Shown piece by piece: positions 9,321 through 48,070 of a stretch of DNA of 64,000 bases (position 1 is the first letter of the stretch; every line of letters begins with the position of its first letter). Source of the DNA: Kiritimatiellia bacterium (lineage in GTDB: Bacteria > Verrucomicrobiota > Kiritimatiellia > RFP12 > UBA1067). Below the pieces are notes generated by a model. It ran no database searches, had not been told where the DNA came from, and saw nothing but the letters and a program-made list of their open reading frames with translations. The stretch covers positions 23,621 to 87,620 of the forward strand of contig JAFXEU010000052.1 in assembly GCA_017520845.1 (NCBI GenBank), written 5' to 3'. The translations under genes were made by a program, and so were the position numbers.

Positions 9321-12300
9321 TCATTCCGGTGCGCCGATGATCTTCATCTCCTTGTCTTCGGCACCGCTTTTGACGTCATCGAGCCACTTCTTCTCTTCTC
9401 TGATCGCGCTCGCCCTGTATCCGTCCCATGCGCGGCGGAGAGATCTCACCTCCGCCGCCGCCATGGGATCGCGCACACGCTTTTCGGCCGACGCGATGCA
9501 CTTCTCGAGTTCATCCGCCACGGAACCAGCGAAAAATCCATCCGCTTTCGTGCGCATGGCGTTTCGCAGGATTATGTCGCAATCCTCAAATTCCATGGGA
9601 GACGCGAACGTAAGATTCTCGATCGCGGCCGACATGACAAGCGAATAAAAGCGTCCGACATCTTCCGCCGCTTCGCGGAAGGTGCGCTTAAGATAGTACG
9701 CGCGAAGCTTCGGCACGTCTGCGCCCGACGCGCCCCAGAGAAGTCGCTCCATAACCCACTTTTCCATATTACTCAAAGCTTTCGACTCCGCCTCCGCGTG
9801 CCAGTCGAAAAACCCGAGCTCGACCTCGGCCTTGTAATCCCACGCGGCGACGTCGGCCCACGGACGCGCCCCGACGCAGAGGAAGTATTCGTAAAGAGAA
9901 AGCCTCACATCCTGCTGGCTCCACGCGACCATCGAACGGTAATGAAGATCGTTCATCGGCGCGAAGATCGGCACGAAATAATTCTTTCTGATATACGGGC
10001 AGAATCTGATGTCGTAATTGCGCGAGACCGTTATGAGCGGAATCGGCGACATCCAGAAATATCCGATCGACTCTATCCGCGCGTCGCGTTTCGCGAAAAC
10101 GTTGACCGCGTTTATCATCGCGGAACCGTTGGCGTAATACTGCGTCGAGCGGAACGCCGCGCTTTCGGGGCCTACCGTGGAACCGTCGGCGAGACGGATC
10201 GGGGTCAGACACTCCGAGCACTGGCACATCGAAATCGAATCTTCGACCCAGAGACCGTGAAGATCGTATGAGTTCCATGCGAACGCGCGCCCCTTCTCCT
10301 GCGTTTCCGCGAACGGTCCTCTCGTTATGCGGGCAAAAGCCGACGCTTCCAGATAGTTCTCGCGCGCCCTGTCGAGAACGCGTATGAGACACGGATGCCC
10401 CGTATAGCAGCCGGGCTTCATCAAAGTGCCGTCGGCGCGCCGCCCCCACGTATCGTTCGGCTCGCCTTTCTTCTCGTCACCCCTCGGCTCGGTGCCGTAG
10501 CCCCACCAGTGGTTTATGCAGCGCGTGCGCTGACGCGCGAAATGCCAGCTGCCCTCCCACTGGAAACCGGGCACGCGATTCGGCCCGTCAACGCCGAATA
10601 TGCTGTATTCGGGCATTTCCGGCGCGTGGACGAAGCCGTCGCCCCACCTGATTTCGAAGTCTCCGCCCGCATCCGGCTCGAAAATCCTCACGGGCCTTCC
10701 GTCCGCGCCCGAATGCGGATAAATGATGTCCGTGTTGTTTTCAAGAAGCTCGTAAAGCGCGAACGCGAGCCCTCTGACGTTTCCCGCGTAATTATACCGC
10801 GAAGCGTAGATATAAACGTTCGTTCCGTCCGAGCGTATTGCGCAGCCCGGCTTTCCCGCGAGCGCCTTCATGTCGGCGTCGTACTGCGCCTTATCGATTT
10901 TCGAATAGGCGTTGCCGCCGACGATGATCGAATTTTCGATCTTGGCGCCTTTCTTCGGCGGCAGACGCGTCTCGATCCTGATGTCTGCGGCCATCGAAAA
11001 CTTGCGCTGGAGAACGCCCGCGAATTCGTTGGCGGCAGCGAAAACGATTTTGGAATACACCGCGCGCTCCGCCGCCGTGGCACCCGGCGGAAAACTCGCC
11101 GGCAGAACGTAGATCTTTCCCTTGGGCCTGCGCTTTTCGATGAATTTTATCGGTGCGGCGAGCCTCCCTTCTTTCGGCGGATCGAACGCGCTTTTCATCG
11201 AATCGAAATCGATCACCCTTTTCGTGTCGCGCGATCCGAGGAATTCCCTGTATTTCGCGAGATCGCCGCCGGTATGCATAACGCCTCTGGTGAAACGCGG
11301 GTCGGCTATCGTCACGACGACTTTCTCATTGTTGTTTGTCGGTATCTTCTTGTTGTCATAATAAAAACACCAGTGGGTGAGCTTGGTGTAATAGGAGCTC
11401 TTGTTGTTCGATGGATCCGAGTTGGCGATATCGTAAGCGAAAACCCTCCAGCCGTCTCCGCCGCGCGAAAGCCCGCTCGACATGTCCTTGTTCTGACAAT
11501 AATCGGCCTGAGCCAGACCCCAGCGCGTCCAGTCGCAAAAATCGTGCGTCTTCGAGAAGAAGCTTATCTGAAACGTATCGAAAGGCTTGTTGAGTTCCTT
11601 CTGGTTGGTGCCGTAAAGCATCGGCTTCAAGTCGCCGAGAAGCGGCTTCGCCCCGTCGAACGTCTCGACCTTGGCGAAAAACGTGAACGTGTTATAGTCC
11701 AAGCCGTCGATCTCCACCGGAAAGCGCAGAAGACAGCGAGGACCTCTCTGCAAAGTTATCTTGACGGCCGGGGCGTCCTTGCCGAGAACTTTCACCGTCG
11801 TATATTCGACCGTGAAGCCGCCGTCTTTTTCTTTTTCGAGCTGCGGGCGAAGTTCATACCTGTCCGGAAGCGCGGGGATCGAATCGGCCGCGCCCTCGCC
11901 TCGGGCATACTTGAAAACATCGTCGATGCACTTCGATTTGACAAGCGGCTCGCCGGTGCCGAAAACATTCTCCTTTCTGGTCCAGCGTCTTTCAGGCAGC
12001 GCCGTAAAGCGGGCTTTCGGTTTCGGCCTCAAAAGCCTCAAGTCTATGATCTCAAACTCCTGCTCGAAGTCTTCGCCGTCAGCCGCGCCCGCGACAAACG
12101 AGAGCCTGTCTATCGTCGCGGCGTTTTTCGCCTTGAACGGAATCGTGAAATCTTCGAATTCGCCGCCGACATTTCCGGAAAGCCGCGCCGAAAAGTTTTT
12201 GCCCGAGAGCGCGACCAAGAGAGACGGAGAAGCGTTTTTGACCTTCGCTCTGACCCTGAACGCCAAACCCGTGAAATCGTCGGCGCGGAGATTGAGCCTA

Positions 12301-40353: not shown

Positions 40354-41130
40354 TCAACGCGTCTCTTCAAGCGGTTCATTGTCGCGCGATCTCAGAAGAA
40401 GCGAGGGATTCTCCCTGATTTCGTCAGCGAACTCCCTCAGCGACGCGGAGGCCGCCGACAGATTTTCAAGAATCACGCTGATCTGAGGAGTTGAGGTTTC
40501 GACAAGGACGTCCAGATCGGAGGTAAGCTTCGCCGTCGATTCGACAATCTCGGTGACATTGCTGCCGACGCTCGGGAGATTCATTCTGTTCAGGTGATTT
40601 ACCGTCCGCGTCAGCGAGTCCGCGAAATTCTCAAACATCGACGGCGCGGGCGGAATCATGGTATGCCTCGGATTCCATGAAATCGGAGCCGGGTCCTGCG
40701 GCGTACGCGGATAATCGAGTTCCAACCGCGACAGTCCCGTTATTCCGTTTGAACGTACGGTCGCGCGAAGCCCCATTTTGACCTTCTGCTCGAGAGCGCG
40801 AGCGGCCGACGCATCCTGCCCCAATCCCATCAAATCCGTATCTACGGAAAAAAGAATGTGTATTTTCTCGCGGTCCGCCTCGTTGGCGGTAGGGTAATCC
40901 CGTCCGACGAAGGACACCGCCCTGACGGAACCGACCTTGACTCCGCGGAACGTTATGGGGCTTCCCTCCGAAAGTCCCGAAACGGGATAGTTGTAATATG
41001 TCTCAAGCAGAATTTCCCTGGAACCGTTTACCCAACCGCCGAAATATGCGACTGTCGCGACGATGGCCGCAACGCCCAATATGACGATGAAGCCGATTTT
41101 GGCGTAACTAGGTGAATTGTCTCTTGCCAT
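40354..41130 (-). CDS. MCE-domain protein (MlaD/PqiB-like)
   Basis: N-terminal TM helix plus the MCE domain (ILLETYYNYPVSGLSEGSPITFRGVKVGSV). Confidence 0.7.
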   Translation of the reverse strand: MARDNSPSYAKIGFIVILGVAAIVATVAYFGGWVNGSREILLETYYNYPVSGLSEGSPITFRGVKVGSVRAVSFVGRDYPTANEADREKIHILFSVDTDLMGLGQDASAARALEQKVKMGLRATVRSNGITGLSRLELDYPRTPQDPAPISWNPRHTMIPPAPSMFENFADSLTRTVNHLNRMNLPSVGSNVTEIVESTAKLTSDLDVLVETSTPQISVILENLSAASASLREFADEIRENPSLLLRSRDNEPLEETR

Positions 41131-41873
41131 TATTCACTCCCCCTGTTGAAGAACCGCTTCACAAAAGCGTCCTCCGATTTATGTTTGAGTTCCTGCGGTC
41201 TGCCGAGCGCGATCATCGCGCGCCGCGACTTGTCGAACATCGCGCACCTGTCGGCTATTTTGAAAATGCTGTCCAGCTCATGGGTGACGATGACAAACGT
41301 CATTCCCTTCTCCGCTCTCAGCTTCAGTATCAGATCGTCAAGCGCGGCAGACGTTATCGGATCGAGCCCGGCGCTCGGCTCATCGAGAAAAACGATCTCC
41401 GGATCGAGTGCCATGGCCCGCGCGATCGCGACGCGCTTTCGCATTCCGCCCGAAATCTCCGAGGGCATCTTATCTGCCGCATCTTCAAGTTCTACATCCC
41501 TCAAAAGCTGCATTGCCCTCTCGCAACATGCGCGTTTCTTCGAGGAAGTGAACTCTCGGATCGGCAGCATCACATTCTCAAGGCACGTCATAGAACCGAA
41601 AAGCGCACCGCTTTGGAACATCACGCCGATCTTCCTGCAAAGTTCCGTTCGGGTGTCAAAATCCCATTCAAGCCCGGCGACGCGCAGGTTTCCCGACAAA
41701 ACGGGATTAAGTCCGATCATGTGCTTCATCACCGTCGACTTGCCGCATCCTGAACCGCCGAGAAGAATGAAAATCTCGCCTTTGAAAACATTGAAACTTA
41801 TATTCTCAAGAATCACCGCCCCGGGATATCCGGCGTCTACGTTCTGGAGCTGAATCATCGTCTGCTTTTCCAT
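41130..41873 (-). CDS. ABC transporter ATP-binding protein (MlaF-like)
   Basis: Walker A GGSGCGKST, signature LSGGMRKRVAIARA and Walker B IVFLDEPSAGLD. The likely start is MEKQTMIQLQNV at 41873, right after the permease stop. Confidence 0.8.
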   Translation of the reverse strand: MEKQTMIQLQNVDAGYPGAVILENISFNVFKGEIFILLGGSGCGKSTVMKHMIGLNPVLSGNLRVAGLEWDFDTRTELCRKIGVMFQSGALFGSMTCLENVMLPIREFTSSKKRACCERAMQLLRDVELEDAADKMPSEISGGMRKRVAIARAMALDPEIVFLDEPSAGLDPITSAALDDLILKLRAEKGMTFVIVTHELDSIFKIADRCAMFDKSRRAMIALGRPQELKHKSEDAFVKRFFNRGSE

Positions 41874-41887
41874 CACCCTACTCCAGA

Positions 41888-42682
41888 TTAAACCCCGCAG
41901 ATATAACACAAGACGGCAAGAAGACCGTCGATCAAAGCGATTGAAACTATCCCGCTGACAACAGCCGAAGTCGCCGCGACGCCCACCGCGTCCGCGGTAG
42001 ACTTCGCGCGCATTCCGGCATAACATCCAACCATACCGATCGCCAGTCCGAAAAGCGCCCCCTTAACAAGACCGAAAACAACAGCGAACAAGCCGGTAGA
42101 GTCGGTCACATGTTCAACAAAAACCTCAAACGGCACGCCCATCAGCGAGAGCACCCCCGCGCCGCCCGCAAGCCCGGCAAGTTCGGCGAAAACGGTCAGT
42201 ATCGGCATCGCGAGAACCGCCGCGGCCACCCTGGGAGGCACGAGGAAACGGACAGGCGAGAGCCCCATGGTGGTAAGGGCGTCCAATTCCTCGTCGACCT
42301 TCATCGTGCCGATTTCAGCGGCGAACGCGCTTCCGGAACGCCCGGCGAGAACAATCGCCGTCACGAGAGGTCCGAGTTCCCTGAAAAGTCCGATCGCCAG
42401 AAGATCGGAAACATAAACCTCCGCGCCGAACATTCTGAGCGCGGCGGCCGATTCAAACGCGAGGATCAGCCCGAGAAGGAGTCCTATACCGGACGTGATG
42501 ACAAGCCCGTCGAACGCGGCCCGCTGGAACGCGAGAAAAAAGTCTCCCGCCCGGAATCGGCTCGGATGGAATAAAATTCCGCCGAAAGCGCAGACCGATT
42601 CTCCGATATAGGCGCAGACGTCCGCGCACGAGCGGCAGGCGCCCGCGACTTTAGATCCGACGAATGAAAACGGACTGATCAC
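41888..42682 (-). CDS. ABC transporter permease (MlaE-like)
   Basis: 264 aa, multi-TM, MlaE/YrbE-like topology. Shares an operon with the MCE and ATPase genes. Confidence 0.7.
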   Translation of the reverse strand: MISPFSFVGSKVAGACRSCADVCAYIGESVCAFGGILFHPSRFRAGDFFLAFQRAAFDGLVITSGIGLLLGLILAFESAAALRMFGAEVYVSDLLAIGLFRELGPLVTAIVLAGRSGSAFAAEIGTMKVDEELDALTTMGLSPVRFLVPPRVAAAVLAMPILTVFAELAGLAGGAGVLSLMGVPFEVFVEHVTDSTGLFAVVFGLVKGALFGLAIGMVGCYAGMRAKSTADAVGVAATSAVVSGIVSIALIDGLLAVLCYICGV

Positions 42683-42683
42683 T

Positions 42684-43247
42684 TCAGAGCCTCTTGAGCG
42701 CCTCGCTCATGGATCGGGTGAACGCCGTTGAAAACGCTTTTGTATAATCCGCATCCGCGGTCGGGGCGACGGCCTCGCCGCGGGACGTCGAGATCACTCT
42801 GCGCGATTCGCAAAGTCTCAGCATAACGGCGACGGACGCCTCTCGCCTGCCTTCCGTCCGGCAGTCGAGGGCCAACCGGGTAACCGTAACCTCAAGCTTC
42901 AGCGGCGAAGCGACCGACGATTTCGAATCGAGAACGACATCCGCAAACCCGGCCGACTCCAGGGCGTCGAAGACCGCTCCGGACAGCAGACGTTCGGGTG
43001 TCGATGCGAACGCGTTGCAGGGATCGAACGCGATCGAGCCGTCGGCTCTCAAGACCGCGAGCGCCGTTCCGTCGTACGGGGGACGCACGTCGACACGCGA
43101 GATCCTGACCGAAGGTTTCCGTACCGCGGTGATTTTCGGCATCTCTCCTTTTATCTCGGTAACGTGCCACTTTTTGGGTGCGGGCGGAACGGAAGAAAGA
43201 CAACCGCAGAACGCGGCCGTCACTGCAAGGTAAAAAGCGGTTTTCAT
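42684..43247 (-). CDS. lipoprotein, ABC-transport auxiliary component-like (PqiC/YmbA-like)
   Basis: Lipobox AAFCGCLSS. 187 aa. Sits immediately upstream of the MlaE/F/D-like genes. Confidence 0.45.
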   Translation of the reverse strand: MKTAFYLAVTAAFCGCLSSVPPAPKKWHVTEIKGEMPKITAVRKPSVRISRVDVRPPYDGTALAVLRADGSIAFDPCNAFASTPERLLSGAVFDALESAGFADVVLDSKSSVASPLKLEVTVTRLALDCRTEGRREASVAVMLRLCESRRVISTSRGEAVAPTADADYTKAFSTAFTRSMSEALKRL

Positions 43248-43263: not shown

Positions 43264-44331
43264 TTATCTAAAAACCCAGGTCTTCTGCAGCTTGTAGGAC
43301 AGAAGAAAAAGAATCAGATCAACTGCGATCTTAATGCCCGTGATTCTCACTCCGCATGCGTTGAAAACGGTGCTGACCAAAAAAGTTCCCGCATACGATA
43401 ATGCCATAACGGCGCATGCCAGCGCCGCGTACCTGCAAATCGACAGGGACTGCCGGTTTTTGGACCGGAAGACGAAATGCCGGTTTAAAAGATAATTCAC
43501 GCCGGCCGAAACAACGCGCGCGGCGATGACCGATATTAAGATGTAGACGCTCCTGTCAAGCGCAAACGGTGCAAGCGCGCAGAGCAAAAGCGTGAAGACG
43601 CCGTTATCGACGAAGAAACCCGCAAAAGACGAGCCGATGAACTTGAGAAACCTCCCGCCGAAAAGACCGCGGTAGATTCTCACCGTATCGCGCACGGGAC
43701 GGAAGTGGGATGTGCGGTTGCTTTCGATGTAGATGGTGCGTATCGATACCTGTTCCAGCGACTCGCGCATGTCCGCAAGCTTGCCGAAAAGTCGCATCTC
43801 ATACTCGAACCTCTCCCCTTCCGTGTCGAGCATCATGTCGAACAGGCGCCGCGGAATCGCCCTCAATCCGGTCTGCGTGTCATAAATCGGAATTCTGAAC
43901 ATAAGACGGACCAGAAAGGCGGTAACCACGTTCCCGAAGCGGCTTCTGAACGGAATGCCGGCCTTGTGAAAATCTCTGACGCCCAGAGTGACACGGTCGG
44001 TCTCAACGGCCTTCTCGACGACCTTTACGACATCATCGGGCCGATGCTGCCCGTCGCCGTCGACAAAAACCGCCACCTTGACGTCAGGGCGGTTCTCCTT
44101 CAGCCAGGCTATGGCCGTCTTTATCGCGCGGCCCTTGCCGCGGTTGATTTCATGGCGGACCAGGGAAACGCCTTCGGGCAGAAGATCAAAGCCGCCGATA
44201 TTTTCAACGCTTCCGTCATCAACCACGACGACCGTCGAATACAATTCGAGAAGCGAATGCGAAAGGGCCGTGAGCCCGGGCTCAGGATTGAAGACCGGTA
44301 TGACGGCGGCGACGGTTTTATTCCGGATCAT
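43264..44331 (-). CDS. family 2 glycosyltransferase fused to a GtrA-like 4-TM domain (polyprenol-phosphate sugar synthase-like)
   Basis: GT2 DxD region (VAVFVDGDGQH) and a C-terminal 4-TM GtrA-like tail (FAGFFVDNGVFTLLL...). Confidence 0.65.
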   Translation of the reverse strand: MIRNKTVAAVIPVFNPEPGLTALSHSLLELYSTVVVVDDGSVENIGGFDLLPEGVSLVRHEINRGKGRAIKTAIAWLKENRPDVKVAVFVDGDGQHRPDDVVKVVEKAVETDRVTLGVRDFHKAGIPFRSRFGNVVTAFLVRLMFRIPIYDTQTGLRAIPRRLFDMMLDTEGERFEYEMRLFGKLADMRESLEQVSIRTIYIESNRTSHFRPVRDTVRIYRGLFGGRFLKFIGSSFAGFFVDNGVFTLLLCALAPFALDRSVYILISVIAARVVSAGVNYLLNRHFVFRSKNRQSLSICRYAALACAVMALSYAGTFLVSTVFNACGVRITGIKIAVDLILFLLSYKLQKTWVFR

Positions 44332-46046
44332 CTGCCACCGCCTTCCTTAAAACAGGAACTGGACCAGACGGGCGACGGGAAGCCGTCCGTCTGCGACCAG
44401 TAGACCGAGTCGTCCCTCTCGAGAAGGCGAGGACCGGTAAAAACCAACGGCCATGAAACATCAACCGCATTTGTCCCTTCAAAAGAAGGCGAAGCTCCAT
44501 CTGGCAGAAATCTGTTTTTAACGACATACTCCCAGTTATCGAGAGGTTTTTCAAAACGATAATCCCGAAATTCGGCAACCGTATCGATGTTTCTCTGTCG
44601 GATTCCTTCATCACGAACCTGGCGAAGAAAGGTCGATGCGCACACATACGCCTGGTTGAGAGCAAAAACGGCCAAGACAGAAATTGCAACCTGCCGCATA
44701 CGCGCGGGCAGCGAGAAAACAATATTGAACCACAGCACGGCTATCACGAAAAATACGAAGTTGGCGTATCTCGAATATCCGATATATTTAACCGGCACCA
44801 ATAAAAAGGCCAACAGCAGAATCCAGGCGACAAAAGTGGTACGGTTGCGGTTTATGAAGAGAGAGAGAAGCGCACCGGACCAAAGAACCAGAGAAAACAT
44901 CCAACCTTGACCGCCGGACAGAAACTCCCATTTCCATTGAGGATCGAAACCGTCGACAGAATACCAGATTCTGCAGCCCCAGACCGCGAGCGGTTTACTT
45001 ACCCATGCGTAAACCATCCGCGCGACATATCCCATTCTGTTCGCATCTTCGTTGCCGATGAAATCGCTCGTCAGATCCATGGTTGGAACGTCCGCACGGA
45101 AGCTGTGGGCCGGATAAAAAGGAGAGCCATAACGCCACGCCGACGCCCAATAGGGAATTACACAAAAAAAGGCAAGCGCCGCCAGAAAAACAAGAAGCCC
45201 GAAGCGCATATCCTTTTCCTTGCGGCCGATGACGGCGGCGGAGATAAGGAGCAACACTACGCACGCCAGGCTGTTCATCTTGGTCGCGACGGCAACGACG
45301 GCGCATCCGAAAAACATGTACAAATCAATTCTGCTTTTCGTATCGAGCCACATCCTGAGCGACATTGCCGCAATGGCGATAGCCGAATACGCCACATAAT
45401 CGACAAGCCCTGAAAAACACGCTTCCGCAATGATGGTATTCGAACAGAGCAAAGCCGCAAAAACGGCAGAGGTCCGGCGCCCGGCACGGAAAACCGAGGT
45501 TGAGAATCTGTAACCGGAAATCGCCAGAGCAAAACACATAAACCAAAGCGCGTATCCGCCGGCAGAAAAAAGCCCGAAGGCAGACTGCATCTGAGCGGCG
45601 AGAATTTGGGAAAACTTCGGTGCGGCGATGATGTGATAAGCCAGAAAATCCTTAGCCTCGGACACGCCGCGGCCTGCAAAACGCGCGCGTACAGCCTCGA
45701 CCGACGATTCGGTTACCGGATTCCACCCGTCCTCAAGAAAATGACTTATCGGCAAATGACAGATCGACGCATCTACATGAACGTAGGTAAAAGTGTAAAA
45801 AGTCAAAAGAAGCGTCAAGAGATTGAGTCCGATCATCCAAAGACCCGCTTTTCGCGAATACCAAAAGGCCAATCCCGTCACTGCGGCGAATGATGCCCAA
45901 AAATGCCAGGCGTGAAGAGAACAACCGATGAGAAAACATGCATTACTCAAACCAAATCCCAAAAGCAACTGCAAAACGAGAAACGCTTCAAGTCTCATTT
46001 CTCGCTTTTCATTCGCGCAATTATTATTAGATCTGGTAAAAAACAT
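44328..46046 (-). CDS. GT-C-fold integral membrane glycosyltransferase (ArnT/PMT-like), about 12 TM
   Basis: Polytopic membrane protein of 572 aa, overlapping and co-transcribed with the upstream GT2-GtrA gene. This is the classic polyprenol-P-sugar synthase plus GT-C transferase pair. An alternative start is MRLEAFLV at 45998. Confidence 0.5.
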   Translation of the reverse strand: MFFTRSNNNCANEKREMRLEAFLVLQLLLGFGLSNACFLIGCSLHAWHFWASFAAVTGLAFWYSRKAGLWMIGLNLLTLLLTFYTFTYVHVDASICHLPISHFLEDGWNPVTESSVEAVRARFAGRGVSEAKDFLAYHIIAAPKFSQILAAQMQSAFGLFSAGGYALWFMCFALAISGYRFSTSVFRAGRRTSAVFAALLCSNTIIAEACFSGLVDYVAYSAIAIAAMSLRMWLDTKSRIDLYMFFGCAVVAVATKMNSLACVVLLLISAAVIGRKEKDMRFGLLVFLAALAFFCVIPYWASAWRYGSPFYPAHSFRADVPTMDLTSDFIGNEDANRMGYVARMVYAWVSKPLAVWGCRIWYSVDGFDPQWKWEFLSGGQGWMFSLVLWSGALLSLFINRNRTTFVAWILLLAFLLVPVKYIGYSRYANFVFFVIAVLWFNIVFSLPARMRQVAISVLAVFALNQAYVCASTFLRQVRDEGIRQRNIDTVAEFRDYRFEKPLDNWEYVVKNRFLPDGASPSFEGTNAVDVSWPLVFTGPRLLERDDSVYWSQTDGFPSPVWSSSCFKEGGGR

Positions 46047-46088: not shown

Positions 46089-47195
46089 TTATGGCTTTTT
46101 TGTGAAGTTCTTAACAATCACCCTGTCGTCGAAGGGATACTTCACACCCTTTATCTCTTGGGTCGTTTCGTGACCTTTTCCGCAGATGAGAACCACATCG
46201 CCCTCTTGGGCTTCTTTAAGCGCGAATTCTATCGCCTTGGCACGGTCGGCTTCAATATGAACCTCACCTCCAGGCGCGATGCCTTTCTTTATATCGTCGA
46301 TAATCGCCATGGGTTCTTCGCTTCTCGGATTGTCGCTCGTTACGACAACGACATCAGCAAGACGACCGGTAACTTCACCCATCAGCGGTCGCTTCATCGG
46401 ATCTCTGTCGCCGCCCGCGCCGAAAACGACCCAAAGCCGACCTTCGGTGAATCCCCTCGCCGCCCCGAGAACTTTCTCAAGACCGTCAGGCGTATGGGCG
46501 AAATCAACATAAACCTTGGCGGCTGACGCGCACTTAACGTACTCTAAGCGTCCCCAGCGCGGCGTCAGAAGCGGGATGGTCCTTTGGATTTCCTCGCGGT
46601 CGACGCCCGCCGCCTCCGCGAGCGCCGCGGCAACAAGAACGTTCGACTTGTTATAGTCGCCTACAAGCTGAAGATCCGAAAGATCGTAGCGCGGCCTTTT
46701 AATCGTAACGGGAATCACGTTTAGCGGCAATTTCCCGACGGCCTCGAGCATCCGCTCGCCGTTCTCGCCGTCGAGGCAGACGACAAAAGGCGGCATATCC
46801 CGCCGTCCGTCGGTCGGCTTCGGAGAATAGGTCGCGGCGATCTTTTCGGCGAATGAGAGTTTTACACGGAAATACTCATCCATCGTCTTATGGTAGTCAA
46901 GATGATCCTGCGAAAGATTCGTGAACGCGCCGCCCGCAAAAACGGTGTCGCCGGTACGGTTCTGATGAATCGCGTGGGAAGAAACCTCCATCACGCAATC
47001 CTTCGCGCCCGCCTCTTCCATTTCCGCGAAGATTGATTTCAGCACCGGCAGAGGCGGAGTCGTGTAACCGGTGGAGAATTTTCTTTTAAGCGTATCGACC
47101 TCGACAGTCGTAACGTACGCCGATTTCAAAAACTCGGAAAGAATCCACGTCGTCGTGGTTTTACCGTTCGTTCCTGTAATGCCCCAGACTCTCAC
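46089..47195 (-). CDS. MurE-like Mur ligase lacking the N-terminal UDP-binding domain (368 aa)
   Basis: Starts directly at the P-loop MRVWGITGTNGKTTTT. Retains MurE central and C-terminal motifs, including TSDNPRSEEP (the DNPR motif of meso-DAP-adding MurE) and GKGHETTQEI...FDDR. Only 15 nt separate it from the upstream rmlD stop, leaving no room for an N-terminal domain. Confidence 0.6.
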   Translation of the reverse strand: MRVWGITGTNGKTTTTWILSEFLKSAYVTTVEVDTLKRKFSTGYTTPPLPVLKSIFAEMEEAGAKDCVMEVSSHAIHQNRTGDTVFAGGAFTNLSQDHLDYHKTMDEYFRVKLSFAEKIAATYSPKPTDGRRDMPPFVVCLDGENGERMLEAVGKLPLNVIPVTIKRPRYDLSDLQLVGDYNKSNVLVAAALAEAAGVDREEIQRTIPLLTPRWGRLEYVKCASAAKVYVDFAHTPDGLEKVLGAARGFTEGRLWVVFGAGGDRDPMKRPLMGEVTGRLADVVVVTSDNPRSEEPMAIIDDIKKGIAPGGEVHIEADRAKAIEFALKEAQEGDVVLICGKGHETTQEIKGVKYPFDDRVIVKNFTKKP

Positions 47196-47209
47196 TTCGA
47201 TAATTCCTT

Positions 47210-48070
47210 TTAGACGGTTGGAAATTCGGATGCGACAAAGTCGGCGAGCGCCGAACGCCAGTCAGGCATCGTATAACCTAAAAGCGCAAGAACACGTTTC
47301 TCAAGCGCGGAATTCTTAGGGCGCGGAGCCGGGCGCGGAAACTCGGCGGTGGTACACGGAACCAGGCCGCGCTTCAATGACGGCATAAGTTTCTTGAGCT
47401 CCGCCGCGAAATCGTACCAGCTCGCAGTACCCTCGCACGTCGCGTGTACGGTCCCTTCGAGAGAAGGCTTCGAAAGAATAAATCTTATCGCTTCGGCGAC
47501 GGCCTCGGCGCTCGTAGGGTTGCCGAACTGGTCGTTCACGACCTTGACGGGTTCGCCGTCGGCGGAAAGAAGCTTTACCATCGTATGAACGAAGCTCGGC
47601 CCGCCAGATCCATAGAGCCACGCGATTCTTAAAACAACCGCCTCGGGATAAAGCGAGCGGATCATCTCCTCGCCGGCGAATTTGGACGCGCCGTATACCG
47701 TGCGCGGACGCGGCGTATCCTCCTCGTTCCACCCGTCGCGCCCTTCTTCAGGTTCACCTGAAAAAACATAGTCGGTTGAAACCGCGATAAGACGCGCGTT
47801 CATCGCGGCGGAAACTATCGCGACGTTGCGCGTCCCCTCCTCGTTGATCCTGTAAGCAAGAGCGCTGTCGGTTTCACATCCGTCGACATTCGTCATCGCG
47901 GCGGCGTGAATCACGACGTCAGGATCCGCCTCGGCGAAAAACGCGGCTATGCTGGATCGATCGGTGATATCGCATTCGGGAAGATCGGCAACGACTACCT
48001 CATCGCTTTTGAACGCCTCGCAAAGCGTCCGCCCGAGCATCCCCTTCCCTCCGGTAATCAAGATTTTCAC
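47210..48070 (-). CDS. rmlD: dTDP-4-dehydrorhamnose reductase
   Basis: N-terminal MKILITGGKGMLG Rossmann motif, plus the STDYVF and YGASK active-site motifs. Length is 286 aa. Confidence 0.8.
   Translation of the reverse strand: MKILITGGKGMLGRTLCEAFKSDEVVVADLPECDITDRSSIAAFFAEADPDVVIHAAAMTNVDGCETDSALAYRINEEGTRNVAIVSAAMNARLIAVSTDYVFSGEPEEGRDGWNEEDTPRPRTVYGASKFAGEEMIRSLYPEAVVLRIAWLYGSGGPSFVHTMVKLLSADGEPVKVVNDQFGNPTSAEAVAEAIRFILSKPSLEGTVHATCEGTASWYDFAAELKKLMPSLKRGLVPCTTAEFPRPAPRPKNSALEKRVLALLGYTMPDWRSALADFVASEFPTV

Follow-up and report, generated by a model that had tools for sequence, protein, structure and literature searches.

In the 64-kb window analysed here, the whole stretch of 64,000 nucleotides from a contig of a Kiritimatiellia bacterium, a gene for a MurE-type ligase lies directly downstream of rmlD and encodes a protein that begins at the ATP-binding loop. 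Recognition of the substrate's UDP end is ascribed to the N-terminal domain in the MurC–MurF ligases, among which MurE is an essential target for antibiotics. The locus raises the question of what a MurE without this domain is, how it arose, and on which substrate it acts.

Architecture and boundaries of the short murE gene

The gene and its upstream boundary comprise the following features:

46089..47195, minus strand: short murE, two-domain (central ATPase and C-terminal), without the N-terminal UDP-binding domain (Pfam, NCBIfam, structure alignment)
47193..47195, minus strand: GTG start codon; ATG at the same position in most orthologs (M-R/N-V/I/F-W-G-I/V-T-G-T-N-G-K; sequence, ortholog comparison)
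47204..47209, minus strand: AAGGAA, resembling a Shine-Dalgarno site and located 8 nt ahead of the GTG, within the 14-nt rmlD–murE spacer (sequence)
47210..48070, minus strand: rmlD (dTDP-4-dehydrorhamnose reductase), an intact upstream boundary that leaves no room for an N-domain (Pfam, NCBIfam)

The product, 368 aa long and initiated at GTG, scores as a member of the MurE family but lacks the three-domain architecture with PF01225. Pfam matched only Mur_ligase_M (aa 6–191) and Mur_ligase_C (aa 215–341), and the PF01225 N-domain was absent from the protein in this search. The murE model TIGR01085 was matched at 370.4 bits (cut-off 257.3) over profile positions 86–470 of 472, and the MurE equivalog NF001126 at 373.1 (cut-off 373) over positions 105–483 of 486, despite the approximately 105 missing residues. 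In the alignment with E. coli MurE (1e8c), residue 1 of the short protein corresponds to E. coli residue 108, so domain 1 and the linker are wholly missing, and the chain begins at the strand preceding the P-loop.

The upstream gene is complete, with positions 1–283 of 287 of the Pfam RmlD_sub_bind profile matched. Its TAA stop codon is followed by AAGGAATTATCGAA and then by the GTG, which places the Shine-Dalgarno site at a normal distance. Gene calls on 16 independent contigs of ruminant-gut assemblies give the exact 368-aa protein, which rules out an assembly or start-calling artefact. An earlier, sequence-only reading of this DNA had held the UDP-binding domain to be truly absent, and Pfam, the 1e8c alignment and the intact rmlD agree with it; the adjacency to rmlD that it described is likewise correct, although the true spacing is 14 nt and not 15 nt. 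It had also reasoned that a sole murE in the genome would imply a mis-called start, whereas the evidence points to a correctly placed start in a murE that is probably the sole copy.

Distribution in gut Kiritimatiellae and purifying selection

A protein search returned more than 120 clusters (90% identity) that share 67–97% identity with the query and contain the M and C domains only. Nearly all are 350–420 aa long, the exceptions being a few fusions or misannotated starts, and the named clusters derive from Kiritimatiellae metagenome-assembled genomes (MAGs). A genome scan covering one genome per GTDB species returned 56 short-form loci (L007–L060, L062 and L063), 59–97% identical to the query, from yak, cattle, sheep, goat, horse and human gut MAGs. 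The start M-x-x-W/Y-G-[IV]-T-G-T-N-G-K is present in 56/56 of these loci, mostly with ATG as the initiation codon. Across 13 unsaturated pairs within this short clade, dN/dS ranges from 0.04 to 0.16; the gene is under strong purifying selection, and these values together with the invariant catalytic residues described below refute the suggestion of a decaying duplicate. Source annotations of these proteins vary between ordinary MurE and 'Mur ligase family protein'.

To search for N-domain sequence, a profile built from 20 MurE N-domains was run against six-frame translations of the loci and of the 64-kb window; in control loci, it detected the N-domains of MurE (1e-24 to 1e-36) and of MurF (1e-9 to 1e-21). 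By tblastn and HMM in six frames, no N-domain remnant was found within 10 kb in any short-clade locus or in the 64-kb window (best E=0.64). The possibility raised earlier of a frameshifted N-domain upstream is not borne out by these searches, which covered the other frames and the flanks. No other mur genes were found in the 64-kb window.

Several further features were recorded in the course of the survey. Short murE contigs (68–72% identity) occur in Gemmiger, Anaerovoracaceae, Faecalibacterium, Azospirillum and Lachnospira bins (L029, L033, L034, L037, L039), and L016, L025 and L043, which also carry short murE, are labelled Lentisphaerae; these Gemmiger/Lachnospira-type bins and Lentisphaerae labels probably reflect mis-binning or mislabelling. 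Some gene calls join MurE to unrelated C-terminal modules, as putative fusions or perhaps through lost stop codons; among them are BioW in P0124 (L090 468–2510, 680 aa), an extension of about 290 aa (P0122, 661 aa), UDG (P0039, 581 aa) and a 619-aa ORF in L026 (9926–11785). A GR[RK]D[MLF]PP insertion (window 46785–46817, aa 127–137) precedes the strand VVCLDG and occurs in about 60% of the proteins of the short clade, but is missing from the basal members of the clade and from all full-length MurEs. It was considered as compensation for the lost N-domain and rejected, being absent in about 40% of the clade including those basal members, and no compensating element universal in the short clade was found.

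Orthology and ancestral position in the dcw cluster

The slot downstream of ftsI in the dcw cluster is occupied by the short gene in three loci, L059 (mraZ–mraW–ftsL-like–ftsI–short murE), L048 (mraW–ftsL-like–ftsI–short murE) and L058 (ftsI–short murE), and by a full-length murE in the sister locus L091; the gene of this window has moved away from that slot. The gap between ftsI and short murE is 0–11 nt in these basal members. Among full-length relatives the closest is P0125 (469 aa, 56% identity), encoded in the mraW–ftsL–ftsI–murE arrangement of L091. Directly downstream of murE in all four loci lies a small lipoprotein gene (lipobox, motif SWxYxDAGFSGxGxRD, no Pfam match), with the following coordinates:

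L091 4552–5118: small lipoprotein after murE
L048 4321–4797: small lipoprotein after murE
L059 ~11082–11561: small lipoprotein after murE
L058 ~2055–2468: small lipoprotein after murE

In a neighbour-joining tree of the shared domains (360 columns, 200 bootstraps), the short forms fall into one monophyletic clade (154/200). Full-length P0124 and P0125 are its sister group (172/200), and it is nested inside the Kiritimatiellae MurE clade (172/200); its first branches are the dcw-resident L058/L059, followed by L048. Because the basal short members and the full-length L091 share the same operon arrangement, the deletion of the N-domain took place in situ. The simplest course of events is one such loss of the N-domain codons, with the gene relocated later in the crown group. 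The gene, which had been called a paralog, is thus, by position and by phylogeny, orthologous to the murE of the dcw cluster, and the phylogeny proposed at that time places the short MurEs within Kiritimatiellae MurE and not as separate paralogs.

Active-site residues and predicted fold

The catalytic and substrate-binding signatures of the short protein map as follows:

47157..47183, minus strand: P-loop GITGTNGKT (aa 5–13; K12 = E. coli K119), invariant in the alignment
46860..46862, minus strand: K112, at the position of carbamylated Lys224 in E. coli MurE, invariant in the alignment
46323..46334, minus strand: DNPR, meso-DAP carboxylate-binding signature (aa 288–291 = E. coli 413–416), invariant in the alignment
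46167..46181, minus strand: GKGHE (aa 339–343; E343 = E. coli Glu468, binder of the diamino-acid amino group), from the alignment

The motifs named in the sequence-only reading, the ATP P-loop MRVWGITGTNGKTTTT, TSDNPR (aa 286–291), GKGHE (339–343) and FDDR (355–358), are all present. Positions invariant across both short and full-length forms comprise P-loop residues T7–T13, T45/T46, E70, S72, R80, D97, H98, K112 (E. coli K224), R264 (Arg389), D288-N-P-R291 (E. coli 413–416), and G339 and E343 (Gly464 and Glu468). The short MurE consequently retains the P-loop, the carbamyl-lysine and the Mg/acyl-phosphate residues expected of a MurE (G8–T13, E70, H98 and K112 invariant), along with the meso-DAP motif DNPR and the equivalents of Glu468 and Arg389; DNPR and Glu468 are documented meso-DAP determinants (PMC3829189). 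The counterparts of T45/T46, S72 and R80 in the M. tuberculosis enzyme are Thr195/196, Ser222 and Arg230, which have been named as key substrate-site residues (PMC6736417). The diphosphate loop of the M. tuberculosis enzyme, Gly83/Ser84 (PMC6736417), is located in the domain that is missing here.

AlphaFold2 modeling with a 51-sequence alignment gave a confident structure (pLDDT 90.1, pTM 0.88) whose chain begins at strand 1 of the ATPase sheet. The best PDB match in Foldseek was product-bound E. coli MurE, 1e8c (query-normalised TM 0.86, rmsd 2.9 A, 37% identity), and in this comparison with MurE, which had been proposed earlier, the two domains superpose on 1e8c. Relative to the E. coli enzyme, the P-loop, carbamyl-lysine, DNPR, GKGHE and MurNAc-peptide contacts are conserved in the short MurE, whereas E. 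coli residues 1–107 (domain 1 and linker, with the uridine pocket and diphosphate loop) are absent and the antiparallel hairpin of domain 2 is reduced.

Comparison with full-length and N-terminally reduced Mur ligases

Full-length MurEs of the same lineage (P0125, P0124, L061/L064 and P0129) share 44–56% identity with the query and, unlike the short form, retain an N-domain with the DSR...G.LF motif. Among them, L061 and L064, from environmental Kiritimatiellae, are ordinary MurEs of 489 and 487 aa with 44–45% identity to the query and the N-domain DSR motif.

The natural absence of the N-domain is shared with MurT, the subunit of lipid II isoglutaminyl synthase (GatD/MurT) and a Mur-ligase-family enzyme that lacks the UDP-binding domain because its substrate is the membrane-anchored lipid II (PMC6113224). 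MurT differs in its C-domain, which is of the DUF1727 type, in its GatD partner, in often carrying a Zn ribbon, and in having DNAAD where the short MurE has DNPR. The short protein scores 24.9 bits against the MurT model NF052464 (cut-off 800), and its C-domain is PF02875, which sets it apart from MurT. For the other Mur-ligase relatives without an N-domain, cyanophycin synthetase (cya_phycin_syn, 86.7 vs 850), FolC/FPGS (38.5 vs 162.65) and Mpl (36.3 vs 388.7), the scores likewise stay below the cut-offs, and in NCBIfam all models of MurT, MurC, MurD, MurF, Mpl, FolC, cyanophycin synthetase and pseudomurein ligase fall far under their cut-offs.

A further reduced MurE was encountered in an unrelated groundwater lineage (Rifle ANAN16, JGI 3300025323), where P0171 is a 423-aa protein (L094 8001–9272; L095 3713–4984). 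It is encoded in a mur operon, directly ahead of murD and the gene for a 416-aa Mur ligase, and, as in the short form, Pfam detects M and C but no other domain. It is unrelated to the short form in sequence (41% identity), keeps the linker helix, about 43 residues, ahead of the P-loop and lacks the DSR motif. From its sequence, P0171 looks like an independent and partial N-terminal reduction of MurE. A 93-aa ORF upstream of it was examined as a split-off N-domain and rejected (hmmsearch E=0.21). P0213 (391 aa) may be another N-terminally reduced MurE. The groundwater case suggests that MurE depends less on its N-domain than is usually assumed. No description of an N-domain-less MurE in Kiritimatiellae was found in the literature searched.

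Peptidoglycan pathway context

The short clade keeps FtsI, FtsW, MraW and MraZ. Its MurD keeps the Rossmann-type UDP-binding N-domain (GAGKSG...) in L024, L092 and L093, so UDP-MurNAc-dipeptide should still be made. The murD–LysM–ftsW–xseA block is conserved in the clade, and murF is not among these neighbours of murD. No MurF assignable to the short clade was found among the top 120 matches to the environmental Kiritimatiellae MurF; these 120 relatives are all full length with PF01225, and those MurFs that were traced come from lineages with full-length MurE (L096) or of uncertain placement (L100). Kiritimatiella glycovorans has peptidoglycan, with DAP (and Orn) in whole-cell hydrolysates (PMC5148204).

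The MurD of the clade is also compact, at 384–403 aa vs 445 aa in L064 (L024 15762–16928; L092 10001–11155; L093 5880–7091), and is without the antiparallel hairpin of the central domain, an element of about 25 aa that is shortened in the short MurE as well. This suggests a general trimming of Mur ligases in the short-MurE clade. In Kiritimatiellae dcw clusters (L064 5826–16783; L061; L096; L100; L101) the order is murE–murF–murD–LysM protein–ftsW, with no mraY between murF and murD and with a conserved protein of three LysM repeats between murD and ftsW. The dcw cluster of the gut clade is split into at least three pieces.

Glycosylation neighbourhood in the window

The gene order around the short murE is rho–SDF transporter–rmlD–murE–572-aa membrane protein–GT2/GtrA, and Pfam bore out two of the neighbours named by the earlier reading, rmlD and the GT2 and GtrA protein. 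The gene between murE and the latter is:

44328–46046, minus strand: polytopic membrane protein, 572 aa, more than 10 predicted helices, between murE and the GT2–GtrA gene

This protein, taken in the sequence-only reading for a GT-C transferase, had no Pfam or NCBIfam match even at E<=5, and its single-sequence AF2 model was unusable (pLDDT 43.6), which leaves the GT-C identity a putative one. It diverges fast, with 54–62% identity in L009 and L011, vs 87–91% for murE. Directly downstream of the GT2–GtrA gene lies an Mla-like set (window 40354–43247, minus strand), conserved in L009 and consisting of an ABC_trans_aux lipoprotein, a permease-like ORF, an ABC ATPase-like ORF and an MlaD-like ORF.

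The rmlD/GT2–GtrA arrangement is limited to L007–L011, which are at least 87% identical, and is missing in the other approximately 50 species, where the contexts are unrelated, e.g., DFP/abhydrolase or FtsJ/umuC. Because the arrangement is confined to these five loci, the glycosylation context carries no functional signal, and the tie to glycosylation genes drawn earlier is not supported.

A probable housekeeping two-domain MurE and its alternatives

By sequence, fold, active site and ancestral position, the short form is a conserved variant of MurE, departing from it only in the three-domain architecture. We therefore consider it likely that the short MurE is the housekeeping enzyme of the clade and still adds meso-DAP to UDP-MurNAc-dipeptide. 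The ancestor of the clade lost, in place, about 105 residues comprising the N-terminal domain and the linker within a mraZ–mraW–ftsL–ftsI–murE operon, and with them the uracil pocket and the diphosphate-binding loop. The two remaining domains keep all residues for binding ATP and Mg2+ and for forming the acyl-phosphate on D-Glu, as well as those holding MurNAc-L-Ala-D-Glu and selecting meso-diaminopimelate. In the lineage of the window, the gene would later have moved beside rmlD by a rearrangement devoid of functional meaning. The Mur ligase N-domain is described as important for substrate recognition (PMC6113224), and because both the uracil pocket and the diphosphate loop come from it, an enzyme without it should bind its substrate less tightly.

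The loss of both of these elements would also fit a ligase that has been re-targeted or made independent of the carrier, attaching the diamino acid to a non-UDP MurNAc-dipeptide (lipid-linked, or a recycled muropeptide) or to another glycan or lipid acceptor. MurT provides the precedent, its N-domain being absent because lipid II is the substrate (PMC6113224), and the gene in the window sits between rmlD and a GT2–GtrA polyprenyl-phosphate-sugar synthase. We regard such a ligase as unlikely, given that this neighbourhood occurs only in L007–L011 and the ancestral position is ftsI–murE, that MurD retains its UDP domain, and that the MurT model is matched at only 24.9 bits vs 800. The invariance of all MurNAc-peptide and meso-DAP contacts argues specifically against a non-muropeptide acceptor, and the different acceptor proposed by the sequence-only reading gains no positive support. 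It is also improbable, in our estimate, that the MurE of the clade is indifferent to the carrier, seeing only MurNAc-L-Ala-D-Glu and adding meso-DAP to lipid-anchored or recycled precursors; if true, stem-peptide assembly in gut Kiritimatiellae would be partly rewired from the textbook cytoplasmic UDP pathway.

The short form could instead be redundant, or a member of a complex, next to a full-length MurE or a separate N-domain protein encoded elsewhere in the genome. Other gut Kiritimatiellae lineages do have a full-length MurE (P0129 in GCA_017962315.1; L096), and Mur ligases are known to occur in complexes and fusions (PMC10214165). Set against this, the basal short gene fills the dcw murE slot at 0–11 nt from ftsI and is followed by the same lipoprotein gene as in the sister locus; because the basal members hold it in this slot, the short gene is the original copy, and its domain was deleted and not split off. 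In the neighbour-joining tree, the full-length MurEs from gut lineages are placed outside the short clade and, as a weaker point from a motif-dependent scan, no other scanned MurE locus shares an assembly prefix with a short-clade genome. On these positional grounds a second murE or a far-off N-domain elsewhere in the genome is unlikely, and an accessory role or completion in trans has, in our judgement, a low probability.

A non-functional remnant, a mis-called start or an assembly artefact, as the GTG start and the missing domain might suggest in a single sequence, is refuted by the identical protein on 16 independent contigs, the same and mostly ATG start in 56 species, the properly spaced ribosome-binding site, the intact rmlD 14 nt upstream, the dN/dS of 0.04–0.16 and the confident and complete predicted fold, and we assign it a negligible probability.

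The labels of ordinary MurE and 'Mur ligase family protein' on short-form proteins constitute an annotation problem. More broadly, the clade represents a natural experiment, in which strong purifying selection maintains a dcw-derived MurE without domain 1 in at least 56 species. Either MurE can do without domain 1 in vivo, which would offer a minimal MurE for enzymology and for the design of inhibitors, or the short-MurE clade departs from the textbook pathway in how the substrate is delivered.
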